A stretch of 64,000 nucleotides of DNA from a bacterium (lineage in GTDB: Bacteria > Bacillota > Sulfobacillia > UBA995): contig JAVHLP010000005.1 in assembly GCA_031082145.1 (NCBI GenBank), positions 34,676 to 98,675 on the forward strand. The letters run 5' to 3'. Positions within the stretch are counted from its first letter, which is position 1. The number at the start of each line of letters is the position of its first letter. The position numbers and the translations under genes were made by a program. Below the pieces are notes generated by a model, which did no database searches, was not told where the DNA came from, and saw nothing but the letters and a program-made list of their open reading frames with translations. Below, piece after piece: positions 11,088 through 22,626 of the stretch.

Positions 11088-12397
11088 CTCAATCCCTTCC
11101 CGTCAACTTCAGTCCGCAGGCAGCGGTCCAGCACAGCCACGACCAGATCGATCTGTTCCTCGGTGATCACCAACGGCGGCGAGAGGGAGATGATGTCTCC
11201 TAGGGACCTGAGCAGCACTCCTTCCCGGCGGCAAGCCTCCTGCAGCTCCCAGCCCACCCATCGCTTGGGATCGAAGGGTTGTCTGGTAGCCCGATCAGCC
11301 ACCAGTTCCAGGCCCACCATCAGCCCCAGACCCCGGACTTCTCCCACCGCCGGGTGATCCAGGGCCGACAAGGAGTTAAGCAGATACTCTCCCAACCTCG
11401 CACTACGGCCGGGAAGATCCTCGTCCAGAATCAGTTCAAGGTTGCGGAGCCCCACCGCGCAGGCGGCGGCATGCCCGGAATAGGTATAACCGTGCCGGAA
11501 CGCACTTGGGGACTCGGCGAACGGCTTCCACACGGCTTCGGAGATCAGACAGGCCCCCAGCGGCAGATAACCACTTGTCAACCCCTTGGCCAGGCACATG
11601 AGATCGGGCTCCACCCCCCAGTGGTTGACCCCGAAGAGCCGGCCGGTCCGGCCGAAACCGGTGATGATCTCATCAGCGATGAAGAGCACTCCATACCGGC
11701 GGCAGATCTCCTGCACGGCGGGGAGGTAGCCCTGTGGGGGCACCAGGACTCCGCCCACCCCGGCCACCGGCTCGGCCACGAAAGCGGCTACTCGCTCCGG
11801 CCCGCGGCGGCGCAACTCCGCCTCCAGGGCGTGGGCGCACTCCAACCCGCAGCAGTCTTTGGCCTGCTCCCAGGGGCAACGATAGCAGTAGGGGGGCGGG
11901 ATGTGCGAGAAGTCGGGGTCCGGGGGGCCAAAGCCTTCCTTGTAGGCAGGAAATCCGCCTGCGGCCAGGGCAGTGCCGGTGAGCCCGTGATAGGCCCGGT
12001 GCCGGGCTATGATCCCCGTCCGTTCCGGTTCCCCGCGCAGGAAGTGATAACGCCGGGCTACTTTGATGGCCGTCTCCACCGCTTCCGCCCCTCCGGTGGT
12101 GAAGAGGACCCGCCCGGGGCCCCCCGGCATCAGTTCCGCCAGCCGGGACGCCAGTCGAAGGGCAGGGGGGTTGGTGAACCCCCAGAAGACGGGGAAGTAG
12201 GCTAGATCCTCGAGTTGCCGGGTGGCGGCGGCAAGCAGCTCCGGCCGGCCGTAGCCGGCATTGACCAGCCAGAGACCGGCGTTGGCGTCGAGGTACTCCC
12301 GGCCCCCGTCATCGCGGACCAGGCAACCCCGGCCGCTCACGATGCAGACGGTCGCTTCCGGGTTACCGGGCTCGCTGAAGGGACGGACCAGGTACAC
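11084..12397 (-). CDS. Class-III PLP-dependent aminotransferase (omega-transaminase-like)
   Basis: TTGGAEAVETAIKVAR, FIADEIITGFGRTG and CLAKGLTSGY (PLP lysine) motifs. Confidence 0.88.
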   Translation of the reverse strand: MYLVRPFSEPGNPEATVCIVSGRGCLVRDDGGREYLDANAGLWLVNAGYGRPELLAAATRQLEDLAYFPVFWGFTNPPALRLASRLAELMPGGPGRVLFTTGGAEAVETAIKVARRYHFLRGEPERTGIIARHRAYHGLTGTALAAGGFPAYKEGFGPPDPDFSHIPPPYCYRCPWEQAKDCCGLECAHALEAELRRRGPERVAAFVAEPVAGVGGVLVPPQGYLPAVQEICRRYGVLFIADEIITGFGRTGRLFGVNHWGVEPDLMCLAKGLTSGYLPLGACLISEAVWKPFAESPSAFRHGYTYSGHAAACAVGLRNLELILDEDLPGRSARLGEYLLNSLSALDHPAVGEVRGLGLMVGLELVADRATRQPFDPKRWVGWELQEACRREGVLLRSLGDIISLSPPLVITEEQIDLVVAVLDRCLRTEVDGKGLS

Positions 12398-12496
12398 AAC
12401 TCATTCCTCCTCGCTTGTTCATTCCCAGCGGGTAATGCGGATTCCTCCTGCAGGAAAAGCGGTGGCGTGGGAGAATAGAAGGGCATAACACATTGC

Positions 12497-12583
12497 GGGG
12501 ACCGCTAGGGGAGCCCGTGAGGGCTGAGAAGGCGACTGCGCCGACCCTGGAACCTGACCTGGATAATGCCAGCGTAGGGAAGT
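12497..12583 (+). promoter_or_regulatory. TPP (THI-box) riboswitch
   Basis: CTAGGGGAGCC...GGGCTGAGA...ACCCTGGAACCTGACCTGGATAATGCCAGCGTAGGGAAG matches the TPP aptamer consensus. A thiamine transporter gene lies immediately downstream. Confidence 0.9.
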
Positions 12584-12632
12584 GGCCCTGACACCGCTCG
12601 ACCTGAGCGGCCCCCGAGAGGAGGGTCCGCTC

Positions 12633-13154
12633 TTGTCCGTTCAGAAGCTCCCCTTGCGCGCCCTGGCCGAGGCAGGCATCCTGATCGCGCTGGCTACCGT
12701 GCTCTCTTTCGTAAAAGTATTCTCGCTTCCGCAGGGCGGCTCGGTGACTGCCGCCAGTATGGTGCCCATTCTGTTCCTGGCCCTACGCTGGGGGCCCGGC
12801 TTGGGCTTGCTCGGCGGGGTGGCTTACGGCCTGCTACAATTCGCAGTGGAGCCCTTCGTGTACCATCCCGCCCAGGTGCTGCTGGACTACCCGGTAGCCT
12901 TTGGCCTCCTGGGCCTTGCCGGCTTCTTCCGCGGCCAGCCCACGCTGGGCGTGGCGGCCGGGATCGCCGGCCGGTTCGCGAGCCACTGGTTGGCGGGTGT
13001 CGTGTTCTTCGCCGCCTTTGCCGGGACCCGGCACCCGGCCGTCCACTCGGCGATCTACAATGGGAGTTACCTGCTGCCGGAGTTGGTGGTCAGCGCCGTG
13101 GTGATGGCCCTGCTGGCCAGGGTGGTGGGACTGGGCGTGGCCCGCACTGAATAG
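12633..13154 (+). CDS. thiT: ECF-transporter thiamine S component ThiT
   Basis: Six-TM protein (FSLPQGGSVTAASMVPILF...LLDYPVAFG) behind the TPP riboswitch. TTG 12633 follows GAGGAGGG. The ORF-track start GTG 12582 lies inside the aptamer. Confidence 0.82.
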   Translation: MSVQKLPLRALAEAGILIALATVLSFVKVFSLPQGGSVTAASMVPILFLALRWGPGLGLLGGVAYGLLQFAVEPFVYHPAQVLLDYPVAFGLLGLAGFFRGQPTLGVAAGIAGRFASHWLAGVVFFAAFAGTRHPAVHSAIYNGSYLLPELVVSAVVMALLARVVGLGVARTE

Positions 13155-13245
13155 GCCGTCAGCGGTCGTACTGGCCGGGGGACCGGCTCCAGACTACACT
13201 GCTCTACGGGCCCGAGCCCGCGAGGAGCGATGGGATCAGGCCTAT

Positions 13246-13848
13246 GTGGTTGCCGCCGACGGTGGCTTCGCGCATTGCCTGGCTCTCGGTCTGACGCCCA
13301 GCGTGGTGGTTGGTGACCTGGACTCGCTGGCGCCTCAACAGGAGGCCCGCATTGGGGACCTGCCCTTGATGCGGGTCCCCCGGGCCAAGGACCAGACTGA
13401 CCTCCAACTGGCCCTTGACCTGGTAGCGTCCCGCTCTCCGGGTCATCTGACCGTGGTGGGAGCCCTCGGGGGTGAGCGCCTGGACCACACCCTGGCCGGG
13501 ATCCACGCCGGGATCGCTCTCGCCCGGGTCGGATGGCGCCTGCATTACCTTGGCCCGGGCGATGAGCTCTGGCTGCTGGCCGGTCCGGCCGAGCTGGATC
13601 TGGTGGCCCGCTCCGATCGCTACCTGTCGCTCGTACCCCTCACGGCCGAAGTCACCGGGGTGTGGGCCAGTGGCCTGCGGTGGGAGCTCGAGGGGGTGAC
13701 TTTACGGCAGGGCGATTCCCTCGGTATCAGTAACGAGTTCGGCCCCGGCCCGGCCGGGATCCGCTTTCAGGCCGGGGTGTTGGCCGCCGTGCTGAGTCCT
13801 AGGCCCGTCCAAACGGCAGGTACAAGAGGAGCAGGAGAGCCAGAATAG
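13246..13848 (+). CDS. thiN: Thiamine pyrophosphokinase (N-terminus probably begins upstream; see findings)
   Basis: AADGG...VVGDLDS...KDQTDLQLAL...GALGGERLDH motifs. The in-frame upstream sequence AVVLAGGPAP (13162-13191) is also family-like but has no ATG, GTG or TTG. Confidence 0.85.
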   Translation: MVAADGGFAHCLALGLTPSVVVGDLDSLAPQQEARIGDLPLMRVPRAKDQTDLQLALDLVASRSPGHLTVVGALGGERLDHTLAGIHAGIALARVGWRLHYLGPGDELWLLAGPAELDLVARSDRYLSLVPLTAEVTGVWASGLRWELEGVTLRQGDSLGISNEFGPGPAGIRFQAGVLAAVLSPRPVQTAGTRGAGEPE

Positions 13849-15709
13849 CGGCCAGCAAATAGACGTCGAAGTTCAAGTTGATGACCGTCATCTCCCGGAA
13901 GAGGCCGGAGTCGCCCGGGTTATGGTCCACCCGTCGAACCGCGACCACGGCCTGGCGCAGGACTCTAGCCAGCCGCCGGCCGATCCAGGCTCCGGCCTGC
14001 ACCGTCAACTCGTAGAGCCGGTTCCAGGCGGCCGCAACGCCCATTCCCGCCTGCTCGGCCAGCCAGCCTAGACTCAAGGCCCTCGGCAGGTGCAGGTGAA
14101 ACAGGCCGGTGCGGTTGCCGGCCACAAAGAGGAGTCCTCCGAGCACCAGGCAGATTCCGGCGGCGGTGAGGTCGGTTCGGTTGAAGAAGGACAGATGCGA
14201 GAGGTGGCCGTCGGCCCAAGCCGTGTCCACCGGGAACGCCCGCCATACCAGGGGCAGCAATCTTTCCAGTAGCCAGCCCGGTCGGAGGCCGAGGGCCAGG
14301 ATGAGAGCGGCCAGAATCCCCATGCCCACCGAGGATTCCCGGCCGAGCGGCCGGCGAACCTCCTCCATGGCAACCGGGTCACCGGTCCAATCCCTGCCGC
14401 GGCCCAGGAAGACAAAGGAGAACAGCTTGAGAAAGGAGCAAGCGGTGCCGGCACTTACCAGTACGAAGAGCCGTTCAGCCAGAAAGAGGCCCGCTCCCCC
14501 GTGCTGCACGGCCTTCTCCAGGGCGTGGTGCAGCAGCGTCTTGGAGGCATAGCCGTTGAAGCCGGGGAAGCCGGAGATCCCGAGGGAGGCGATGAGGGCT
14601 ACTCCACCCACCAGCGGCATGACCCGCCCGAGCCCGCCCAGGCGATAGATGTTGAGTTCCCGGGTTCGCAGGTACACGGCTCCCACGGCCAGGAACAGCA
14701 GCGCTTTGAAAAGAGCGTGGTTGACCAGGTGGTAGACCGCCCCGGCCAGCCCCATCGAGCCCTTCGCTCCCAGGTACGCGGTCAACCCGATTCCGAGGAC
14801 GATGTAACCCATCTGGCTCACGCTATGATAAGCCAGCAAGCGCTTGCCGTTCGCCTGCAGCAGGGCCAGGCTGACACCAACCGCCATGGTGATCAAGCCG
14901 AGCCAGATCACCACGTAGCCGAGCCCCGGGGACGCCAGCGACTGCCCGGCGACCCGCAAGATGCCGTAAGCCCCGGCCTTTATCATGACCCCCGACAGGA
15001 CTGCGCTGGCCGGCGAGGGCGCGACGGGGTGAGCTTCCGGCAACCATAGGTGCAGAGGCACGATGCCGGCCTTGAGGCCGAAGCCCAGCAGGAACAATGC
15101 GATGACGGCGGGGCGCAGGGCCGGCGGCAAGGTTGCCAGGGAGGCGAAACTCACACTGCCGGTGCTGCCGAAGACCAACCCGACCGCCGTCAACAGGGCC
15201 AACCCGCCAATGACGGCCAGGTAGAGGTAGAGCGAGCCCGCCCGGTGGGCCTCCCCGGTCTGGGTATGGACGACCAGGCCGTAAGAACTCAGGGACATGA
15301 GTTCAAAGAAGAGGAACAAGGTCAGAAGGTCCCCCGCCAGGGCCAGGCCGACCATGCCGGCAAAGGAGAGTAGCCAGAACACGTAGTAACGACGAGCGTG
15401 AGCCTCGTGATCCACATACTCCACTGCAAACAGGGTGGCGGCCAACCAGACTATCGCGGCCACCAGGGCCACCAGCCAGCCCAGGCCATCGGCGCCGAAG
15501 CTCAACCCCAGCGGCGTGCCGGCCATCCCGGGGACCGACCAGCGGACCTCAAGCCCCCGGGCAATGCTGGGGTACATCGCCACTATCAGGAATAGCGTCA
15601 AGCCACAGGCCCCGGTCGCGACCCGGCCGGCCTGGCGGGCCCGGGGCGGGAGGAGACCGATGGCCACCAACGGTCCGGTTACCGCCAGCAGGGGCAAGAT
15701 CGCACCCAT
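13799..15709 (-). CDS. mrpD: MrpD/NuoL-like proton-conducting antiporter subunit with a C-terminal extension of about 150 aa
   Basis: Complex-I chain L/M/N-type repeat (WLPEAHPVAPSPASAVLSGVMIKAG). ATG 15709 follows GAGGT. The extra C-terminal amphipathic segment plus a final TM helix are read directly from the translation. Confidence 0.85.
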   Translation of the reverse strand: MGAILPLLAVTGPLVAIGLLPPRARQAGRVATGACGLTLFLIVAMYPSIARGLEVRWSVPGMAGTPLGLSFGADGLGWLVALVAAIVWLAATLFAVEYVDHEAHARRYYVFWLLSFAGMVGLALAGDLLTLFLFFELMSLSSYGLVVHTQTGEAHRAGSLYLYLAVIGGLALLTAVGLVFGSTGSVSFASLATLPPALRPAVIALFLLGFGLKAGIVPLHLWLPEAHPVAPSPASAVLSGVMIKAGAYGILRVAGQSLASPGLGYVVIWLGLITMAVGVSLALLQANGKRLLAYHSVSQMGYIVLGIGLTAYLGAKGSMGLAGAVYHLVNHALFKALLFLAVGAVYLRTRELNIYRLGGLGRVMPLVGGVALIASLGISGFPGFNGYASKTLLHHALEKAVQHGGAGLFLAERLFVLVSAGTACSFLKLFSFVFLGRGRDWTGDPVAMEEVRRPLGRESSVGMGILAALILALGLRPGWLLERLLPLVWRAFPVDTAWADGHLSHLSFFNRTDLTAAGICLVLGGLLFVAGNRTGLFHLHLPRALSLGWLAEQAGMGVAAAWNRLYELTVQAGAWIGRRLARVLRQAVVAVRRVDHNPGDSGLFREMTVINLNFDVYLLAAILALLLLLYLPFGRA

Positions 15710-15726
15710 GATCAAGGACCTCGTTT

Positions 15727-17199
15727 CTACAGGCCCAGGCCTACGGCCCGGACCAGGCCCAATGTCCAGCCGGGGAAGAACCCGGTCAGCAGGCACGCCA
15801 GTGCCAACAGGATCACCGGCCCCAGCATGCTGAGGGGAGCCTCCTGCGCGCCCTCCGGAGGAGGGTCAAAGCCGCCTTCCCGGAAGAAGGCTCCCGCCAC
15901 GATGGGCAGGTAGTACGCCGCGTTCAGCAGGGCGCTGGCCGCCAGGAGGGCCAGTACCCAGGGTTCCCCCCCGTGCAGGGCCCCCACGACGAGCTGCCAC
16001 TTGCTGACAAAGCCGTTCACCGGGATGACCCCGATCATCCCCAGGGCGGCCACGGCGAAGGCCAGCATGGTCAGGGGCAGGCGCCGGCCGACCCCTGACA
16101 GCTGGTTCACCTGGGTGCGGCCGGTCTGGGTGATGATGATCCCCGCGCAGAAGAACAGGGTGATCTTCATCAAGGCATGGTTGATCAGGTGCACCAAGCC
16201 GCCGGCGACCCCGGCGGGCGACAGGAGGGCCACCCCCAAGGGAATGTAGGCGAGCTGGCTTACGGTGGAGTAAGCAAGCCTTCGCTTGAGGTCCTGCTGC
16301 TGGAGGGCCAGTACCGAGCCCAGGCCGATCGTGATCGCCGCGAGGGTCAGGAACGGCGTCACCATTCCCAGAGCCGCTACGGTTTCCGGGCCAAACAGGG
16401 AAAACCAGGTGCGCAGCAAGCCGAAGACGCCTGCCTTAACAACCGCCACGGCGTGCAGGAGGGCGCTGACCGGGGTGGGGGCCACCATCGCCAGGGGCAG
16501 CCAGCCGTGCAGGGGGATCATCGCCGCCTTCACGGCGAAGCCTAGCGCCAGGCAACTGAACGCCAGGCGCAAGGCGGGATAAGCGCCTGCAGGCAGGAGG
16601 GCGGCGGCCCCCCCGGCGACGAAGGCCGGCGGGCCCAGCAGGCCGGCGAGAACCACGAAACCTCCGAGCACGAGAGCTGCTCCCGCGAAGGAGTAGCCCA
16701 GGTAGTGCCAGCCTGCCCGGGCGGCCTCGGGAGATCCGGCATGCACGACAAGCGGGTAAGTGCTGAGCGTCAGCATCTCGTAGAACAGGTAGAGGGTGAA
16801 GAGGTTGGCGGCGAACGCCAATCCCATGGTGACACCCAACGAGAGCAGCCAGAAGACCGAGTAGCGGCGGCGGTGATCCTCGTGAGCCATGTAGCCGGTG
16901 GAGTAGAGGGTTGCCAGGACCCACAGCGACGACGCGATCAGGGCGAAGAGGGCTCCCAGGGGGTCCAGCCGGAGGTGCACCGCCAGCCCGGACACCAACG
17001 GCCAGGGACCAGCTTCCACCCGACCGCCCCGGAAGACCGTCACCGCGGCAACGGCCACGGCCACCGCGACCGCCAGCGAGCAGGAGACCGTCCAGCAGTT
17101 CCGCCGCCGGTCGGCGATTTCGGGCAGGAGGGTGAGGCCCAGGGTCCCCGCCAGTGGTACCCCCACGGCAACCAGCGGCACTAGCTCGCCAGGGATCAT
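15727..17199 (-). CDS. mrpD: MrpD/NuoN-like antiporter subunit (second paralog)
   Basis: 490-aa polytopic protein with WLPLAMVAPTPVSALLHAVAVVKAG. Confidence 0.88.
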   Translation of the reverse strand: MIPGELVPLVAVGVPLAGTLGLTLLPEIADRRRNCWTVSCSLAVAVAVAVAAVTVFRGGRVEAGPWPLVSGLAVHLRLDPLGALFALIASSLWVLATLYSTGYMAHEDHRRRYSVFWLLSLGVTMGLAFAANLFTLYLFYEMLTLSTYPLVVHAGSPEAARAGWHYLGYSFAGAALVLGGFVVLAGLLGPPAFVAGGAAALLPAGAYPALRLAFSCLALGFAVKAAMIPLHGWLPLAMVAPTPVSALLHAVAVVKAGVFGLLRTWFSLFGPETVAALGMVTPFLTLAAITIGLGSVLALQQQDLKRRLAYSTVSQLAYIPLGVALLSPAGVAGGLVHLINHALMKITLFFCAGIIITQTGRTQVNQLSGVGRRLPLTMLAFAVAALGMIGVIPVNGFVSKWQLVVGALHGGEPWVLALLAASALLNAAYYLPIVAGAFFREGGFDPPPEGAQEAPLSMLGPVILLALACLLTGFFPGWTLGLVRAVGLGL

Positions 17200-17211
17200 A
17201 GAAGAATCCTC

Positions 17212-18714
17212 CTACCAGGGAACTAGGGTGGCCACGGCCTGGTTGACCAGCGCCAGGGCCGGTGCGGGCCAGACGCCGAAGAGGATACAGGCCAGGGCCA
17301 GCACCCCAATGGGGATCAGCATCGGCAGGGGGACCTCTACCTGGCTCTCCTCCTGCTCCGGGCCGGGAGTGAAGTAGGCCCGCCAGATGATGGGCAGGTA
17401 GTACAAGGCGTTGAGCAGCGCGCTGAGGATGATCACCCCTGCCACAACCGGCTGCCGGGCTTGCATGCCGCCAACAAAGAGCAGCCACTTGCTCACAAAG
17501 CCGTTGAAGAGCGGCAGCCCTATCATCGCCAGGGCCCCGATGGTGAAGGCGGCCATCGTCACCGGCATCCGCCGGCCCATGCCGGCCAGGTCCACCGTAC
17601 GGCGCTTGCCGGTCCGGTAGATGATCGCCCCGGCGGCCAGGAACAGGCAGGCCTTGATCAGGGCGTGGTTGAGCACGTGGATGAGGGCGGCGGCCAGGCC
17701 AGAGGGCGTTGCCAGCCCCACCCCCAGGAAGACGTAGCCGATCTGGGCCACACTCGAATAGGCCAACATGCGCTTGACGTCAACCTGCACCAGGGCGAAG
17801 AGGGATCCCCCGATGATGGACAGCGTGGCCAGGGTCAGCAGGGTCACCCGGATCAGCGATGCCGCCAGGTCGGCCCCCAGGAACTGGGTGCCGAAGACCG
17901 TGTAGAGCAGGCGGAGCATGGCGTAGGCGTAGATCTTGATGACCAGGCCGGACAGCACGGCGCTGGAGGGGGACGGGGCGAAGGAGTGGGCGTCAGGCAG
18001 CCAGACGTGCAGGGGGAAGAGGGCTGCCTTGACCGCGAAGCCCACGACCATGAAGCACATGGCCACCCAGATCACGTGGGGGTAGCGGCCGTAGACGAGT
18101 GTCAGTTCCTCGGCCACGAACGCGAAGTTGAGGTTCCCGGTGACCTGGTACAGCAGGCCGATGGAGAAGAGCACCAGGCCCGAGCCGAGGGCTGCCAGCA
18201 TCAGGTACTTGAAGGCCGCCTCGGTTGCTTCCTCGGTGTCTCGGGATGCTACCAGGGCGCAAGCGCCGATGCTGCTGACCTCAATGAACACGTAGAGGTT
18301 GAACAGGTCACGGGCCATGGCCATACCCAGCATGGCCGCCACCAGCAGCAGGAACGAGGTGTAGTACCACCCCACCGCCCGGGCCGCCAGCTCGTGCCCG
18401 ATGTCGCTGATGGTGTAGACCAAAATGAGCATGGCGACGCCGGTCAGCACCAGCAGCATGAAGGCGGTCAGAGCGTCCACTGCCACCTCGATACCCCAGG
18501 GAGGGCTCCAGCCCCCCAGATGGACAATGACCACCTCTCCCGTCACGGCCCGGGCGGCCAGGGCGGCTGAGCCGGCAAAGGCTGCGACCAGCGCTCCGGC
18601 AGCTGTGGGGGCGCACCAGTCCCGCCGGTAGCGGGCGAACAGCGGCATCAGATAGGACGCGATGAGGACCACGGCCACGATAAGGACCGGCAGGTTGGCG
18701 GTAACGCTGCCCAT
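17212..18714 (-). CDS. mrpD: MrpD/MbhH-like antiporter subunit (first paralog)
   Basis: WLPDAHSFAPSPSSAVLSGLVIKIY motif. ATG 18714 overlaps the upstream stop as TGATG. Confidence 0.88.
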   Translation of the reverse strand: MGSVTANLPVLIVAVVLIASYLMPLFARYRRDWCAPTAAGALVAAFAGSAALAARAVTGEVVIVHLGGWSPPWGIEVAVDALTAFMLLVLTGVAMLILVYTISDIGHELAARAVGWYYTSFLLLVAAMLGMAMARDLFNLYVFIEVSSIGACALVASRDTEEATEAAFKYLMLAALGSGLVLFSIGLLYQVTGNLNFAFVAEELTLVYGRYPHVIWVAMCFMVVGFAVKAALFPLHVWLPDAHSFAPSPSSAVLSGLVIKIYAYAMLRLLYTVFGTQFLGADLAASLIRVTLLTLATLSIIGGSLFALVQVDVKRMLAYSSVAQIGYVFLGVGLATPSGLAAALIHVLNHALIKACLFLAAGAIIYRTGKRRTVDLAGMGRRMPVTMAAFTIGALAMIGLPLFNGFVSKWLLFVGGMQARQPVVAGVIILSALLNALYYLPIIWRAYFTPGPEQEESQVEVPLPMLIPIGVLALACILFGVWPAPALALVNQAVATLVPW

Positions 18715-19016
18715 CACGGCTGCTGGCCCTCGGGGAGCAGCCATTCAGTCACCGGGCGCCCGCCGGCCAGATGCTCGCGCACTATGCGCCGTGCCTTGTC
18801 GGCGTCCACCCGGCAGTACACGACCGGCCCGGCGCCCGGTGCGCGCACCGTGACCATCGGTTCCCACTCGCACAGGCCAACACAGCCGGCCCTCTCGATC
18901 TCGACGAGCAGGTCGGGCCGGTCCCGCAGCTCGTCCAACAGGCCCTGGATCACCTCGCGGGCTCCCGCGGCCACGCCGCAGGTTCCTAGCCCGACGGCCA
19001 CGCGTATTGGGTCCAT
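18714..19016 (-). CDS. Thioredoxin-like [2Fe-2S] ferredoxin domain protein
   Basis: 100 aa. IRVAVGLGTCGVAAGAREV...AGCVGLCEWEPMVTV...VYCRV resembles the NuoE/HydB-N-terminal type 2Fe-2S fold. Cys residues at positions 13, 45, 49 and 68. Confidence 0.65.
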   Translation of the reverse strand: MDPIRVAVGLGTCGVAAGAREVIQGLLDELRDRPDLLVEIERAGCVGLCEWEPMVTVRAPGAGPVVYCRVDADKARRIVREHLAGGRPVTEWLLPEGQQP

Positions 19017-19030
19017 CGTGTTTGCCCCCT

Positions 19031-19396
19031 CTACTGGCGATGCGTCCGCAACTGGGCGATCCGGTCCGGGTCCAGGGTGCCGTAGTAACCGTACAGCTTG
19101 ACCGCCAGCGCCAGGGCGAAGGCGGTCACGCTCACACTGACGACTATCCCCGTCAGCATCAACGCCGTGGGCAGGGGATTGACGTAGGTGGCGGCGACGC
19201 CCGGCTCCACGATGGGTGGGGTTCCCGATCGCAGGTTGCCACTGGCGATGAAAAAGAGGAAGGTGGCACTCTGCACGATGTTGATGCCGATGATCTTCTT
19301 GATCAGGTTGGACCTCGCCAGCACGGTGTAGAAGCCGATGGCGAAGAGGACCACGGCCACCAGGTACGGGTAGTTGGCCAGGACACGGAGCAGCAC
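19031..19396 (-). CDS. mrpC: Mrp subunit C (MnhC/MbhG, NuoK-like)
   Basis: The 121-aa sequence LVAVVLFAIGFYTVLARSNLIKKIIGINIVQSA is typical of MnhC. Confidence 0.9.
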   Translation of the reverse strand: MLLRVLANYPYLVAVVLFAIGFYTVLARSNLIKKIIGINIVQSATFLFFIASGNLRSGTPPIVEPGVAATYVNPLPTALMLTGIVVSVSVTAFALALAVKLYGYYGTLDPDRIAQLRTHRQ

Positions 19397-19399
19397 GGC

Positions 19400-19837
19400 T
19401 CAGTCCTCCACGATAAGATAGTACAAGCTGATAATGGCACTGGCCACCTTGATGCCCACGCCCACCGTTATCAGCAGGATGAGGCCGCCGGAGAAGAGGC
19501 GCCCGGGTGTGCCCAGCGGTATTCCCGCCCCCCGGTTCATCAGAAAGGAAGCTCCCCGCAGGACGCCCACCAGCCCGACAAGACCGTACCAGAGAGTTCC
19601 CGAACTCTCCATGATCCGGGTGGCGTCGTGAGAGACCTTGCGCAGTCCCGGCCCCAGCCCGAAGACCAGGGAGAAGAGGATCATGCTGATGCCGGCTACG
19701 GTTCCGCCGGAGAACCCGCCGCCGGGGGACAGGTGACCGTGGAAGATCACGTAGACCCCGAACATCTGCAGGAACGGCACCAGCAGGCCGCCCACTTCCT
19801 TGAGGATCAGGTCGTCGAACCGCAGCGGTTCGCGCAC
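19400..19837 (-). CDS. mrpB: Mrp subunit B (MnhB domain, MbhF-like)
   Basis: GHLSPGGGFSGGTV motif of MnhB. Confidence 0.85.
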   Translation of the reverse strand: MREPLRFDDLILKEVGGLLVPFLQMFGVYVIFHGHLSPGGGFSGGTVAGISMILFSLVFGLGPGLRKVSHDATRIMESSGTLWYGLVGLVGVLRGASFLMNRGAGIPLGTPGRLFSGGLILLITVGVGIKVASAIISLYYLIVED

Positions 19838-20124
19838 TAGGTCGCTCCTCCCCGGTGCCGGCCCTCGCCCAGGGCCAGGAGGGCAGCCGCCACGGCGGCG
19901 AAGAGCACGGTGGTCTCGATCAGGGTGTCGTAGGCCCGGTAGTCGGCCAGGATGCCGGCCACCACGTTGACGGCGCCCGTCTCCTCCGGCCCTCGGGTCA
20001 GGTACCTCTCCATGACGGCGTTATGGGTGGGGTTGGGCTGGCCATAGGTCGGCATCTCGGCGACTGCCAGCACCATCAGCCAGGCCACTCCCATGACGAG
20101 GAGGAGGGCGAAGAACCGCCTCAT
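19837..20124 (-). CDS. MbhE-like small Mrp subunit (MrpA C-terminal-region homolog)
   Basis: GAVNVVAGILADYRAYDTLIETTVLF motif. ATG 20124 forms an ATGA overlap with the upstream gene. The N-terminal part of the ORF-track version (to 20232) is His/Gly/Arg-rich and was rejected. Confidence 0.75.
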   Translation of the reverse strand: MRRFFALLLVMGVAWLMVLAVAEMPTYGQPNPTHNAVMERYLTRGPEETGAVNVVAGILADYRAYDTLIETTVLFAAVAAALLALGEGRHRGGAT

Positions 20125-20360
20125 GTCTCCCGCCGCCTGGTGCGGATGATAACTCCCACCATGAGAACGGTCATCGCCGTACCCGCTGCGGCCTCGGTGA
20201 TGGCCATGTCGGGGGCGCTCATCTGGTTCCACACCAGGGCCATGACCAGGCTGTAGGCCCCGAAGATAACCACCGCGTAGACGAGGTCTCTGATGAAGGC
20301 GACGGCCACCGCGCAGGCCACTAGGAAGGCCAGGGACAGCGCAGTCAGGGCTTCGGGCAA
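20121..20360 (-). CDS. MbhD-like (DUF4040) small Mrp subunit
   Basis: VWNQMSAPDMAITEAAAGTAMTVL matches the DUF4040 signature (APDVALTEAAVG). TTG 20360 follows GGGGAGGGG. Confidence 0.72.
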   Translation of the reverse strand: MPEALTALSLAFLVACAVAVAFIRDLVYAVVIFGAYSLVMALVWNQMSAPDMAITEAAAGTAMTVLMVGVIIRTRRRET

Positions 20361-20710
20361 CCCGAACCCCTCCCCTCGTAGAGATCTCGCGTGGTGGTCC
20401 CCGGGCAACGCTCGAGTTCCCGCCGGTAGGCCACGTTGGCTATGATGTGGGCGGTGGTGGGCCCGACAACCCACAGGCCACCCGCTACCAGGACCAGCTT
20501 GATGGCTGTGAGGGGAGCCCCGCAGCGCACCGCCAGGGCTCCCAGCAGGAGGCCGGCCCCCATGGTGTCGCACTTTGCAGTGGCGTGCATACGGGTGAAG
20601 ATGTCAGGCAAGCGGATGAGGCCCAAGGTGCCGGTGGTGAGGAAGAAGAGCCCGCCCAGGGTGAGCGCGATCACCAGCAGATCTGCCAAAACCCGGCCCG
20701 CCCCGCTCAA
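20345..20710 (-). CDS. mrpG: Mrp subunit G (MnhG/PhaG)
   Basis: GTLGLIRLPDIFTRMHATAKCDTMG is the MnhG signature. Confidence 0.9.
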   Translation of the reverse strand: MSGAGRVLADLLVIALTLGGLFFLTTGTLGLIRLPDIFTRMHATAKCDTMGAGLLLGALAVRCGAPLTAIKLVLVAGGLWVVGPTTAHIIANVAYRRELERCPGTTTRDLYEGRGSGCPKP

Positions 20711-20970
20711 CGCAGCTCACCACGACCAATGGCCTTGACCACCGCAATAGCGGCGGTGAACCCGCCGAGCGCGAAGACCAGGGCCACGTCGACGTAGTAG
20801 TGAGTACAGCGGGTGACGGCAAGCCAGCAGATGAGCAGGACCGTCTTGGTGGCGATGACGTTGGTCGCCACCAGGCGGTCCAGGGTCCGGGGGCCTATAA
20901 TCGCCCGGTAGAGCGACAAGAACATGAGCAGGGCGATGTATACCGCGGCGGCGTCCATGAAAGCGGTCAC
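20707..20970 (-). CDS. mrpF: Mrp subunit F (MnhF)
   Basis: The 87-aa sequence LYRAIIGPRTLDRLVATNVIATK is the MrpF signature. Confidence 0.88.
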   Translation of the reverse strand: MTAFMDAAAVYIALLMFLSLYRAIIGPRTLDRLVATNVIATKTVLLICWLAVTRCTHYYVDVALVFALGGFTAAIAVVKAIGRGELR

Positions 20971-21443
20971 CCTCGAACCCCCCGCTCCAAGGGTCTGAGG
21001 TGCTCTTCGATGACCCGGTCCTCAACGCCTCGGGCTGCTTCCCGGGTAATGGCATGCACGGTGAGCCTGTCTCCTTCCAGGTCCACGGTGATGGTCCCGG
21101 GGGTCAGGGTGATGCAGTTGGCCAGCGCCACCTTGACCAGGTCGCGCTCGAGAGCGGTCGGAACCACCACGAACTCGCAGGAGAGAGCCGGCCGGCGGGA
21201 CAGCACAATGCGAGCCATCACGAGGTTGGCCTTGAACACCTCCATGGCCAAGAAGGGCAGGAACCGCAAGGCCGACGGGCGCAGGAGATCCCAGGGCAGG
21301 AGATCATGCCTGTTCCGGGCGTGAACGAGTACCTCCCGCCAGAAGAAGGCAATGAGCAAGGCGGCCAGGAAGCCGACCAACAGGTGCTCGCCGTCGACCG
21401 AGCCGGAGACCAAGAGCCAGAAGGCCAGGAGCGAGAGGACCAT
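20967..21443 (-). CDS. mrpE: Mrp subunit E (MnhE)
   Basis: FLAMEVFKANLVMARIVL...ANCITLTPGTITVDLEGDRLTVH is an MrpE core. The start is uncertain: ATG 21443 gives a typical 158 aa, while the ORF-track TTG 21533 has no SD. Confidence 0.82.
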   Translation of the reverse strand: MVLSLLAFWLLVSGSVDGEHLLVGFLAALLIAFFWREVLVHARNRHDLLPWDLLRPSALRFLPFLAMEVFKANLVMARIVLSRRPALSCEFVVVPTALERDLVKVALANCITLTPGTITVDLEGDRLTVHAITREAARGVEDRVIEEHLRPLERGVRG

Positions 21444-21577
21444 TGGCAGGAACCCACGCACCGACCCCTTGTCCGTGGAAGCGTGCCGCTTCCCCTTGGT
21501 CAAGGTCCTTCCCTTCCCAGACTGCCTGTTCAAGAAAGAGACCGGCTCGACTATCGTCGACCGCCGGGCCCACCCCC

Positions 21578-21607
21578 ATTATATACTACTTGCACTGGTG
21601 CTCACAA
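21578..21607 (-). promoter_or_regulatory. Candidate sigma-A promoter of the mrp operon (TTGTGA-18-TATAAT)
   Basis: On the minus strand, -35 TTGTGA lies at 21607-21602 and consensus -10 TATAAT at 21583-21578. Confidence 0.5.
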
Positions 21608-21630
21608 GTTCGATAAGCAGGGGATACGCC

Positions 21631-22209
21631 CTACGTCAGGCCGCGGGCCCCCGCCAGGTAGTCGCGCACGTTCTCCACATGCTTGGCGATAACGACAACG
21701 GCCAGGGCCGCCCCGAAAGCCGCCCACACCGGTCCCGGTCCCAGCAGGTAGAGGACCAGCGGCAGCAGCCCGAAGGCCACCACAACACCCATGTAGGTGT
21801 TGCGGAAGACGAGGGCCAGCACGGCTATCAGAGGCACCACAACGGCGATGGACACCGGCAAAAGCACCAGCATCGCACCGGCAGAGGCGCCCAGGCCTTT
21901 GCCTCCCTTGAGTCCCAGGAACAGCATCCAGTTGTGGCCGGCCACCACGGCCACAGCGCAGATCAGCGGCAGCCATGGATCGGCGGAAAGGCTCCGGGCC
22001 AGGTAGACCGCCAGGGCTCCCTTTGCCACGTCCAGGATCCCGGTGACGATTCCCGCCGGAAGGCCCACGTTGCGAGCCGCGTTCATCCCGCCGACGTTGC
22101 CGCTTCCTACCCGGCGTATGTCCTGGCCCGAGAGCATCCTGGTCGCGAGGTAGGCGGAGGGAAACGAGCCGATGACATAGCTCAACGCTGCCAGCCAGAG
22201 ATCGGTCAA
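21631..22209 (-). CDS. plsY: Glycerol-3-phosphate acyltransferase PlsY
   Basis: GSFPSAYL...GSGNVGGMNA...GHNW...KGGKG motifs. Confidence 0.92.
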   Translation of the reverse strand: MTDLWLAALSYVIGSFPSAYLATRMLSGQDIRRVGSGNVGGMNAARNVGLPAGIVTGILDVAKGALAVYLARSLSADPWLPLICAVAVVAGHNWMLFLGLKGGKGLGASAGAMLVLLPVSIAVVVPLIAVLALVFRNTYMGVVVAFGLLPLVLYLLGPGPVWAAFGAALAVVVIAKHVENVRDYLAGARGLT

Positions 22210-22320
22210 GGCGGGGCACCTCCTGTGACTCTAGCTACTTCAGCATTCTTCCATCTTCAACCCGGATCCTTCAGACTTGGCCAGCCGCGCCGGTCACCGG
22301 CCGGTCCCTCGGCTCATAGC

Positions 22321-22626
22321 ATGGTCCGGAACCCCACACCCCGGGGCAGGTGGTCACGGGTGCAGGGCGAGGGGGGGACGCCTCTCAGTGAACTGCGGAG
22401 AGGCAGCCGGGCCGTTGTCCGGGTCATCGGCACCCCGGGATCGGACCGGCTGTTCGACTTCGGGCTCTTGCCCGGCACGCCGGTCGACGTTGTCCTGGAG
22501 GCGCCCCTGGGCGATCCCCTGGTTATCGTCGTCAGGGGGACCCTCCTCAGCCTGCGGCGCCGCGACGCCGCCGGCATCATCGTGGCCACCGGGGAGACCC
22601 CGGTTGACCGTCGCCATTGCCGGTAG
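22321..22626 (+). CDS. feoA: Ferrous iron transport protein A
   Basis: C-terminal ~75 aa LSELRRGSRAVVRVIG...RLFDFGLLPGTPVDVV...PLVIVVRGTLLSLRR form a FeoA SH3-like domain. GTG 22360 (after AGGTGG) is an alternative start. Confidence 0.78.
   Translation: MVRNPTPRGRWSRVQGEGGTPLSELRRGSRAVVRVIGTPGSDRLFDFGLLPGTPVDVVLEAPLGDPLVIVVRGTLLSLRRRDAAGIIVATGETPVDRRHCR

Follow-up and report, generated by a model that had tools for sequence, protein, structure and literature searches.

Among the Mrp systems described to date, the stand-alone mrpEFGBB'CD complex of Pyrococcus furiosus is reported to be Na+-coupled and to have a role in pH homeostasis (PMC8415708; PMC5703873). Mrp clusters with an irregular gene order, no full mrpA and often multiple mrpD genes have been placed in 'group 3' (Swartz 2005; Ito 2017; PMC5703873; PMC8415708), and extra mrpA/D-like genes downstream of mrpD have been described in a Nitrospira genome (PMC7784846). 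In the literature, we found no biochemical study of the multi-channel form of this group 3 architecture. Here, we analyse an mrp cluster of eleven minus-strand genes that lies in a 64,000-nt window (the whole stretch of DNA under analysis) on contig JAVHLP010000005.1 of the bacterial genome GCA_031082145.1, a metagenome-derived assembly of 34 contigs and 2.34 Mb that is 98.3% complete. Judged from its sequence, the operon probably encodes a stand-alone, proton-motive-force-driven cation/H+ antiporter of the group 3 Mrp kind, with Na+ as the most likely cation. A small ferredoxin-fold gene is embedded in it.

Each of the eleven open reading frames (ORFs), which extend from 13799 to about 21443, was matched to a Pfam family in a profile search of the products, and the gene order is MrpE-MrpF-MrpG-MbhD-MbhE-MnhB-MnhC-ferredoxin-fold-D1-D2-D3, the last being a long form. 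The cluster opens with mrpE (MbhA-like; 20967..21443; PF01899 MNHE, 111 bits, from residue 33 of the long ORF), mrpF (MbhB-like; 20707..20970; PF04066 MrpF_PhaF, 42 bits), which overlaps mrpE by 4 nt, and mrpG (MbhC-like; 20345..20710; PF03334 PhaG_MnhG, 79 bits). The mrpE ORF opens at the TTG at 21533 and its likely start is the ATG at 21443. An mbhD-like gene (20121..20360; PF13244 MbhD, 57 bits), which has a TTG start with GAGGGG ahead of it, is followed by an mbhE-like gene (19837..20124; PF20501 MbhE, 34 bits against a gathering score of 27), the ATG of which overlaps the mbhD stop. Next come mnhB or mrpB (MbhF-like; 19400..19837; PF04039 MnhB, 88 bits), mnhC or mrpC (MbhG/NuoK-like; 19031..19396; PF00420 Oxidored_q2, 82 bits; NF005621, 122.5 bits against a cut-off of 126) and the gene for an HndB-like, thioredoxin-fold ferredoxin-like protein of 100 amino acids (aa) (18714..19016). 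Three genes for large subunits complete the set: D1, an antiporter-like subunit of the MrpD/MbhH/MbsH type (500 aa; 17212..18714; PF00361 Proton_antipo_M, 218 bits), D2, an extra antiporter-like subunit (490 aa; 15727..17199; PF00361, 174 bits; PF00662, 32.6 bits), and the long D3, an MrpA-N/NuoL-like subunit (13799..15709; Proton_antipo_M, 181 bits). D1 starts at the ATG at 18714, which shares a TGATG with the stop of the ferredoxin-fold gene; the D3 ORF allows products of 636–665 aa, and its most likely start is the ATG at 15709 (636 aa). From 5' to 3', the junctions measure −4, −4, −16, −4, −1, +3, +14, −1, +12 and +17 nt, the largest gap being 17 nt, and the start contexts of the genes, as read from the sequence, contain Shine–Dalgarno-like motifs and stop/start overlaps. 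With neighbouring genes overlapping or almost touching, all eleven belong to a single operon. An earlier note on this DNA had listed eleven minus-strand genes with these subunit identities, and the Pfam matches bear this out for all of the small and large subunits. Its description of the small subunits as Mbh-type likewise holds in the hidden Markov model check through the MbhD and MbhE matches, and the membrane-module order that it proposed is confirmed, the Pfam assignments reading MbhA-B-C-D-E-F-G-H.

The same note had counted three MrpD paralogues. Three Proton_antipo_M proteins are indeed encoded, but the tree, the ranking of solved structures and the Foldseek matches divide them into one MrpD-type, one separate D2-type and one MrpA-N-type protein. 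In a sequence comparison with solved structures, the best PDB chains for D1 were MbsH (249 bits), MbhH (236) and MrpD (172); those nearest to D2 were MbhH and MbsH, followed by NuoL and MrpA, and those nearest to D3 were MbhH and MbsH', followed by MrpA, with alignments that extend past transmembrane helix 14 (TM14). A maximum-likelihood tree was built from 89 sequences, with E. coli NuoL/M/N and the plasmid-borne canonical MrpA and MrpD of Sphingobium and Streptomyces as references. The D1 clade (Shimodaira–Hasegawa-like approximate likelihood ratio test, SH-aLRT, 94) is grouped with MrpD and NuoM/N in a clade of 28 rows (SH-aLRT 95), D2-type sequences fall into a clade of their own with 33 rows (SH-aLRT 97), and the D3 type forms a clade of 19 rows (SH-aLRT 99) that lies outside the group of D1, D2, MrpD and NuoM/N (81), on the side of NuoL and MrpA. 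Each of the D1, D2 and D3 clades includes Bacillota, Coriobacteriia, archaea and Gammaproteobacteria; the three are therefore old paralogue types and not recent duplicates of MrpD, an origin that these clades, each kept across phyla, rule out.

The structural model of D3 refines this assignment. An AlphaFold2 model built from 46 homologues (predicted local distance difference test, pLDDT, 88.3) has helices at residues 511–534 (TM15), 547–595 (49 residues, continuous) and 612–635 (TM16), which is the C-terminal layout of TM15, lateral helix and TM16 found in NuoL and MrpA, and its top three Foldseek matches in the PDB are MrpA chains (TMq 0.79–0.81). By this model, the long 'third MrpD' is the predicted MrpA N-terminal module. 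The remainder of MrpA is encoded by two further genes: the mbhD-like product, a DUF4040 protein corresponding to the first half of the MrpA C-terminal domain, aligns with positions 604–694 of the NCBIfam MrpA models, and the mbhE-like product, corresponding to the second half, aligns with positions of approximately 680–785. As these matches fall on that part of the MrpA models, MbhD and MbhE together are the counterpart of MrpA TM17–21, an equivalence that is given likewise in PMC8415708. With D3 as MrpA-N by fold, no Mrp domain type is missing from the set (A-N, A-C, B, C, D, E, F and G), and the operon therefore represents a complete Mrp, in which MrpA is split into three genes, together with an extra antiporter-like subunit, D2. 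The four conserved charged residues of the NuoL/M/N and MrpA/D channels, namely the TM5 Glu and the TM7, TM8 and TM12 Lys, are kept in all three large subunits (E145, K229, K260 and K409 in D1; E141, K224, K255 and K400 in D2; E136, K213, K244 and K390 in D3). Furthermore, in an alignment of the window with loci L003–L081, the C-terminal part of the long subunit beyond an invariant Pro477 measures 159–211 aa in three-channel clusters and mostly 313–394 aa in four-channel clusters. The lateral-helix region thus seems to become longer as channels are added, in line with a published rule by which the lateral helix is longer where there are more antiporter-like subunits (PMC8165549).

For a gene set of this kind, the earlier note had offered two alternatives: a plain cation/proton antiporter, or the membrane part of a redox complex that has its partner genes at another locus. 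The second, in which the cluster would be the membrane arm of a redox-driven pump (Mbh, Mbx or complex I-like) served by a distant NuoB/C/D/H/I-type module, draws on a gene order equal to mbhA-H and on MbsH and MbhH as the best PDB matches of D1 and D3. However, searches of the window's own 98.3%-complete genome for Complex1_49kDa (PF00346), Oxidored_q6 (PF01058) and NADHdh (PF00146) found no match, while the same searches were positive in 11 of 14 control genomes. The membrane subunit through which a Q-module must be attached, MbhM/NuoH, is absent, and, as in stand-alone Mrp complexes, the distal end is of the MrpA type, here provided by D3. The six Proton_antipo_M genes of the genome belong three each to the cluster in the window and to a second Mrp cluster on another contig. 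In cis, the statement that no NuoB/C/D/H/I-like or hydrogenase genes are encoded stands, the MbhI-N types being absent from the cluster. When the Pfam families of 149 ORFs around 25 related clusters were counted, no Nuo or [NiFe]-hydrogenase core family was among the 25 most frequent ones; the flanking families were heterogeneous (GGDEF, the commonest, in ten ORFs, Fer4 in four to five, HlyIII, MFS and Usp), and conserved redox neighbours are thereby ruled out. Given the absence of NuoB/D/H homologues genome-wide and the lack of recurrent flanks, the redox-arm alternative is therefore not supported for any complex-I-type partner, and we consider it very improbable. The first alternative, a plain antiporter, is favoured by the complete Mrp set and the missing redox partner.

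Among the flanking genes, the GGDEF-domain gene of Coriobacteriia (approximately 300–345 aa) ends exactly where mrpE of the four-channel Mrp operon starts (L007:2003-2908, L009:2149-3180, L013:2234-3079, L017:2248-3144, L020:2030-3070 and others).

The architecture recurs well beyond this genome. A scan with D3, taking one genome per species, returned 192 relatives, of which the best 80 loci were compared. Most of these have the order E-F-G-MbhD-(MbhE/B)-C-D1-D2-(D2)-D3, again with a long D3, and they come from Coriobacteriia (usually with four large subunits), Methanocellales, Methanosarcinales, Hydrothermarchaeales, Bacillota and Gammaproteobacteria. The closest among the 80 is a Bacillota metagenome-assembled genome (MAG; L004), with 47–59% identity per subunit. 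The window's own genome carries a second, paralogous group 3 cluster outside the window (contig C28:129903-137845, plus strand), which reads E-F-G-MbhD-(MbhE and MnhB fused)-C-D-D-D, the last D having 799 aa; it is 38–60% identical per subunit to the cluster in the window and has no ferredoxin-fold gene. Genomes of the same family carry only the C28-type cluster, also without this gene. The irregular order, the lack of a single full-length mrpA gene and the presence of several mrpD-like genes are all features of group 3, and the cluster is a further example of this known, widespread class rather than a new kind of complex. The earlier note's 'unusual architecture' was thus overstated, since the same order is widespread, has been annotated in a RefSeq isolate and is covered by the published class. 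An assembly error amid relatives with ordinary MrpA-G operons is very unlikely to explain the arrangement either, as the same order occurs in many independent assemblies and on a finished isolate replicon.

Two kinds of related loci deviate from this pattern. On Sinorhizobium meliloti pSymA (L125, 745326–755365), the genes read NuoJ-NuoK-MrpD family-small ORF-'Na+/H+ antiporter subunit D' (586 aa)-NuoM-NuoN-NuoA-B-C-D. The MrpD-family gene of this locus groups in the D2 clade of the tree; the match was dropped as a canonical Mrp reference because it is part of a second nuo-type locus. Arrays made up of antiporter-like genes only (for example D3-D2-D1-D2-D3), with no adjacent small Mrp subunits, occur in MAGs of Dethiobacter, Bacillota and Desulfovibrio (L055, L063, L065, L068 and L078); in the two Dethiobacter loci, L055 and L068, the array comes after a split Mrp cluster, B-C-D1-E-F-G-MbhD-MbhE.

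The gene between mrpC and D1 distinguishes the operon in the window. The AlphaFold2 model of its product (pLDDT 87.8) has a thioredoxin-like ferredoxin fold, with Foldseek matches to the N-terminal domains of NfnB, StnB and HydB and to Aquifex Fd4 (TM 0.76–0.80), and a family profile matches NfnB residues 6–95 with an E value of 1e-24. Its nearest sequence relatives, 44–56% identical, are of the HndB type; one carries the name HndB in its source, and the one relative whose context was inspected adjoins HydABC-type [FeFe] hydrogenase genes. The genome itself has an hndB paralogue (121 aa, 44% identical) beside an [FeFe] hydrogenase on contig C32. That region (C32:8989-14143 and C32:16845-17528) contains the hndB paralogue, an [FeFe] hydrogenase large-subunit gene, an ORF of approximately 1015 aa with a ferredoxin-like domain and a second Fe_hyd_lg_C gene nearby. 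The cluster of NuoE is bound by ligands in the pattern C-x4-C ... C-x3-C. In the small protein, all 16 family-invariant residues are kept, as are the family-conserved cysteines C13, C45 and C49; there is no Cys at the second canonical ligand position, and C68 is private to this protein. The ferredoxin-like fold given in the earlier note holds: the protein has the fold of PF01257 (2Fe-2S_thioredx) with three conserved cysteines instead of four, and reaches 23.8 bits against a gathering score of 24.8. With respect to HndB, it belongs to the sequence family but does not adjoin NuoF-like or [FeFe] hydrogenase genes.

As far as the sequence can tell, the insert appears to be real and not an artefact. 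It would be hardly credible to attribute the arrangement or the insert to misassembly of this metagenome-derived genome, even though that genome is in 34 contigs. The contig measures 167 kb, and the insert fits precisely into the space from the stop of mrpC to the start of D1; a ribosome-binding site, AGGGGG, precedes it by 8 nt, and its TGA overlaps the D1 ATG. Furthermore, mrpC and D1 are full length relative to their homologues, the GC content at third codon positions (GC3) of the small gene is that of its neighbours, and the remaining architecture is reproduced in independent assemblies and on the finished replicon. No counterpart was found elsewhere: in the 80 best related Mrp loci, mrpC is followed directly by D1; no orthologue was found in 41 related genomes, the best match being a small stand-alone ORF of HndB size with 56% identity; a single-protein scan of Joint Genome Institute (JGI) metagenomes gave no match; and in a profile scan, none of the 80 best metagenomic HndB-like loci had an Mrp gene within 4 kb. 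The scans of related genomes, same-family genomes and metagenomes rule out an insert conserved in relatives, and the gene thus represents a clean, lineage-specific insertion. No other Mrp operon of this kind examined here contained a gene for a soluble ferredoxin-fold protein.

What this protein would do can be weighed from the same observations. It could be a true extra subunit that provides a redox input or switch, by docking reduced ferredoxin or a bifurcating hydrogenase or by gating transport through its cysteines. Its own Shine–Dalgarno sequence, the TGATG overlap with D1, the 16 retained invariant residues and the confident structural model agree with such a role, as do the window-specific C68 in addition to C13, C45 and C49 and the thioredoxin-fold accessory subunits of complex I, which were seen among the weak Foldseek matches. 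Nevertheless, the gene is confined to one genome, neither set of 80 loci places a counterpart with Mrp genes, relatives have no orthologue and no match above 56% identity, the second canonical cluster ligand is missing, and a single small domain offers no electron route into a cofactor-less membrane arm. In addition, HndB is reported to be probably without a redox centre (PMC10084766). We regard the redox subunit as unlikely, and a more specific version, in which the protein binds to the cytoplasmic face of a three-channel Mrp so that ion exchange responds to, or is driven by, the redox state of ferredoxin, NADH or H2, as more improbable still. If true, it would show a stand-alone Mrp arm in nature that has recruited a soluble redox domain, the kind of event from which Mbh and complex I have been proposed to originate.

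A passenger gene is a tentative possibility: a duplicated hydrogenase-type domain gene that is expressed within the operon and works elsewhere or is nearly neutral. Its occurrence in a single genome, the paralogous hndB beside the [FeFe] hydrogenase of that genome, and the C28 cluster and all related clusters, which do without the small gene, point in this direction. However, the insertion is clean and translationally coupled on the D1 side, its GC3 equals that of its neighbours, and the invariant residues are kept despite an identity of at most 56%, which argues for long purifying selection, either here or before the gene moved. Overall, the most likely role of the small protein is an accessory or regulatory one without catalysis, or else that of a passenger, these two being about equally plausible, and an electron-input function is unlikely.

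Taken as a stand-alone antiporter, the complex can be given a working arrangement. Where the subunits sit, which ion is carried, at what stoichiometry, and what the small protein does are inferred, the arrangement from homologous complexes of solved structure (Mrp, MBH and MBS). The cation-translocating end would be formed by MrpE, F, G and B. MbhD and MbhE, as the TM17–21 equivalent, would form with MrpC a small connecting proton path, and D1, D2 and D3 would provide three consecutive antiporter-like proton channels, clamped together by the lateral helix and C-terminal anchor helix of D3. The proton-motive force would drive cation extrusion and, since three antiporter-like channels are present, more H+ per cation would be expected than for a canonical two-channel Mrp, which may be useful at a low proton-motive force or a high external pH. 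The HndB-like protein would be co-translated with the operon and would not act as an electron-input module. The genome, which is without complex I, has two RnfD/NqrB-type genes (C4:46654-47577 and C31:75221-76144), possibly for two Rnf/Nqr-like complexes in 2.3 Mb, and an [FeFe] hydrogenase. This gene content fits an anaerobe that builds its ion gradient by Rnf and needs Na+/H+ interconversion, and in such a cell the antiporter would interconvert the Na+ and H+ gradients and maintain cytoplasmic pH.

Several points weigh against a plain antiporter of this kind. The first is that all subunits score below the NCBIfam equivalog cut-offs, and the cluster is therefore divergent from every curated Mrp. 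The second is that ion specificity and direction are inferred. The third is the translationally coupled ferredoxin-fold protein inside the operon, which a pure antiporter model does not explain. Finally, the placement of D3 on the MrpA/NuoL side rests on the SH-aLRT 81 split and an unresolved polytomy.

The surroundings of the operon agree with the earlier note as to both flanks, plsY upstream (21631–22209, minus strand) and a convergent thiamine pyrophosphokinase gene downstream (13246–13848, plus strand), the 3' end of which overlaps the last mrp gene by 50 bp. The extent of 13799–21607 given there is correct for the gene block but not for its upper end. The position 21607 is the edge of a promoter-like site, and mrpE probably starts at 21443. 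That site, a sigma-70-like promoter candidate (TTGTGA-18-TATAAT; 21578..21607, minus strand), was found in a consensus scan with 10 of 12 matches, as a pattern match only, and lies in the 187-nt gap between plsY and mrpE. An Rfam scan of 12000–22600 found no leader RNA for the mrp operon. Its sole match was a thiamine pyrophosphate (TPP) riboswitch (RF00059, 66.9 bits; 12497–12597, plus strand) ahead of a Thia_YuaJ thiamine transporter gene (12582–13154), which is followed by the thiamine pyrophosphokinase gene.

Multi-channel group 3 Mrp is widespread in anaerobes, including MAGs with isolate names that point to deep-subsurface and alkaline sites. The class bears on how the H+/cation stoichiometry scales with the number of antiporter-like subunits and on the evolution of the membrane arm of complex I, and the present locus makes it clear that a long 'MrpD' is, as modelled, an MrpA-type lateral-helix subunit.

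Several known systems come close to the cluster or to its parts. The small protein resembles HndB and NuoF-like N-terminal domains (NfnB, 9N5U; StnB, 8OH5; HydB, 7Q4V) in its fold and its CG.AAGAR ... C.G.C..EP motif, but differs from HndB in its location in an Mrp operon rather than beside a hydrogenase, in lacking the N-terminal helix of about 22 aa of stand-alone HndB and in its extra Cys68. The membrane gene order mbhA-H is shared with the MBH and MBS complexes of Thermococcales (6CFW and 6U8Y), whose MbsH and MbhH are the best sequence matches of D1 and D3; unlike in these complexes, MbhI-N (NuoH/B/C/D/I-like) genes are found neither in cis nor elsewhere in the window's genome. With the P. 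furiosus cluster (PF1147-53), it shares the E-F-G genes in first position, B domains of the MbhD/E and MbhF types with C and D after them, and the lack of a redox module. P. furiosus, however, has a single MrpD, a fused MbhD and MbhE, no MrpA-type subunit and no lateral-helix subunit, whereas the window encodes three antiporter-like subunits, one of them of the MrpA-N type, as well as the ferredoxin-fold gene. Canonical group 1/2 Mrp complexes (Anoxybacillus flavithermus, 6Z16; Bacillus pseudofirmus, 7QRU; Dietzia, 7D3U) have the same seven domain types: D3 is a structural match to canonical MrpA TM1–16 (TMq about 0.8), D1 matches MrpD and the key Glu and Lys residues are kept. They differ from the cluster in the window, in which MrpA is split into three genes (D3, MbhD and MbhE), the order begins with E-F-G and D2 is added. 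The RefSeq-annotated cluster of Peptoclostridium acidaminophilum DSM 3953 (EAL2_RS12435-12475; NZ_CP007453.1, 314892–322017) has the same arrangement, E-F-G-MbhD-MbhE-MnhB-C-D-D-D with a last D of 647 aa; its D1 is 39% identical to that of the window, and its ten genes differ from the eleven described here in having no ferredoxin-fold gene between C and the first D.

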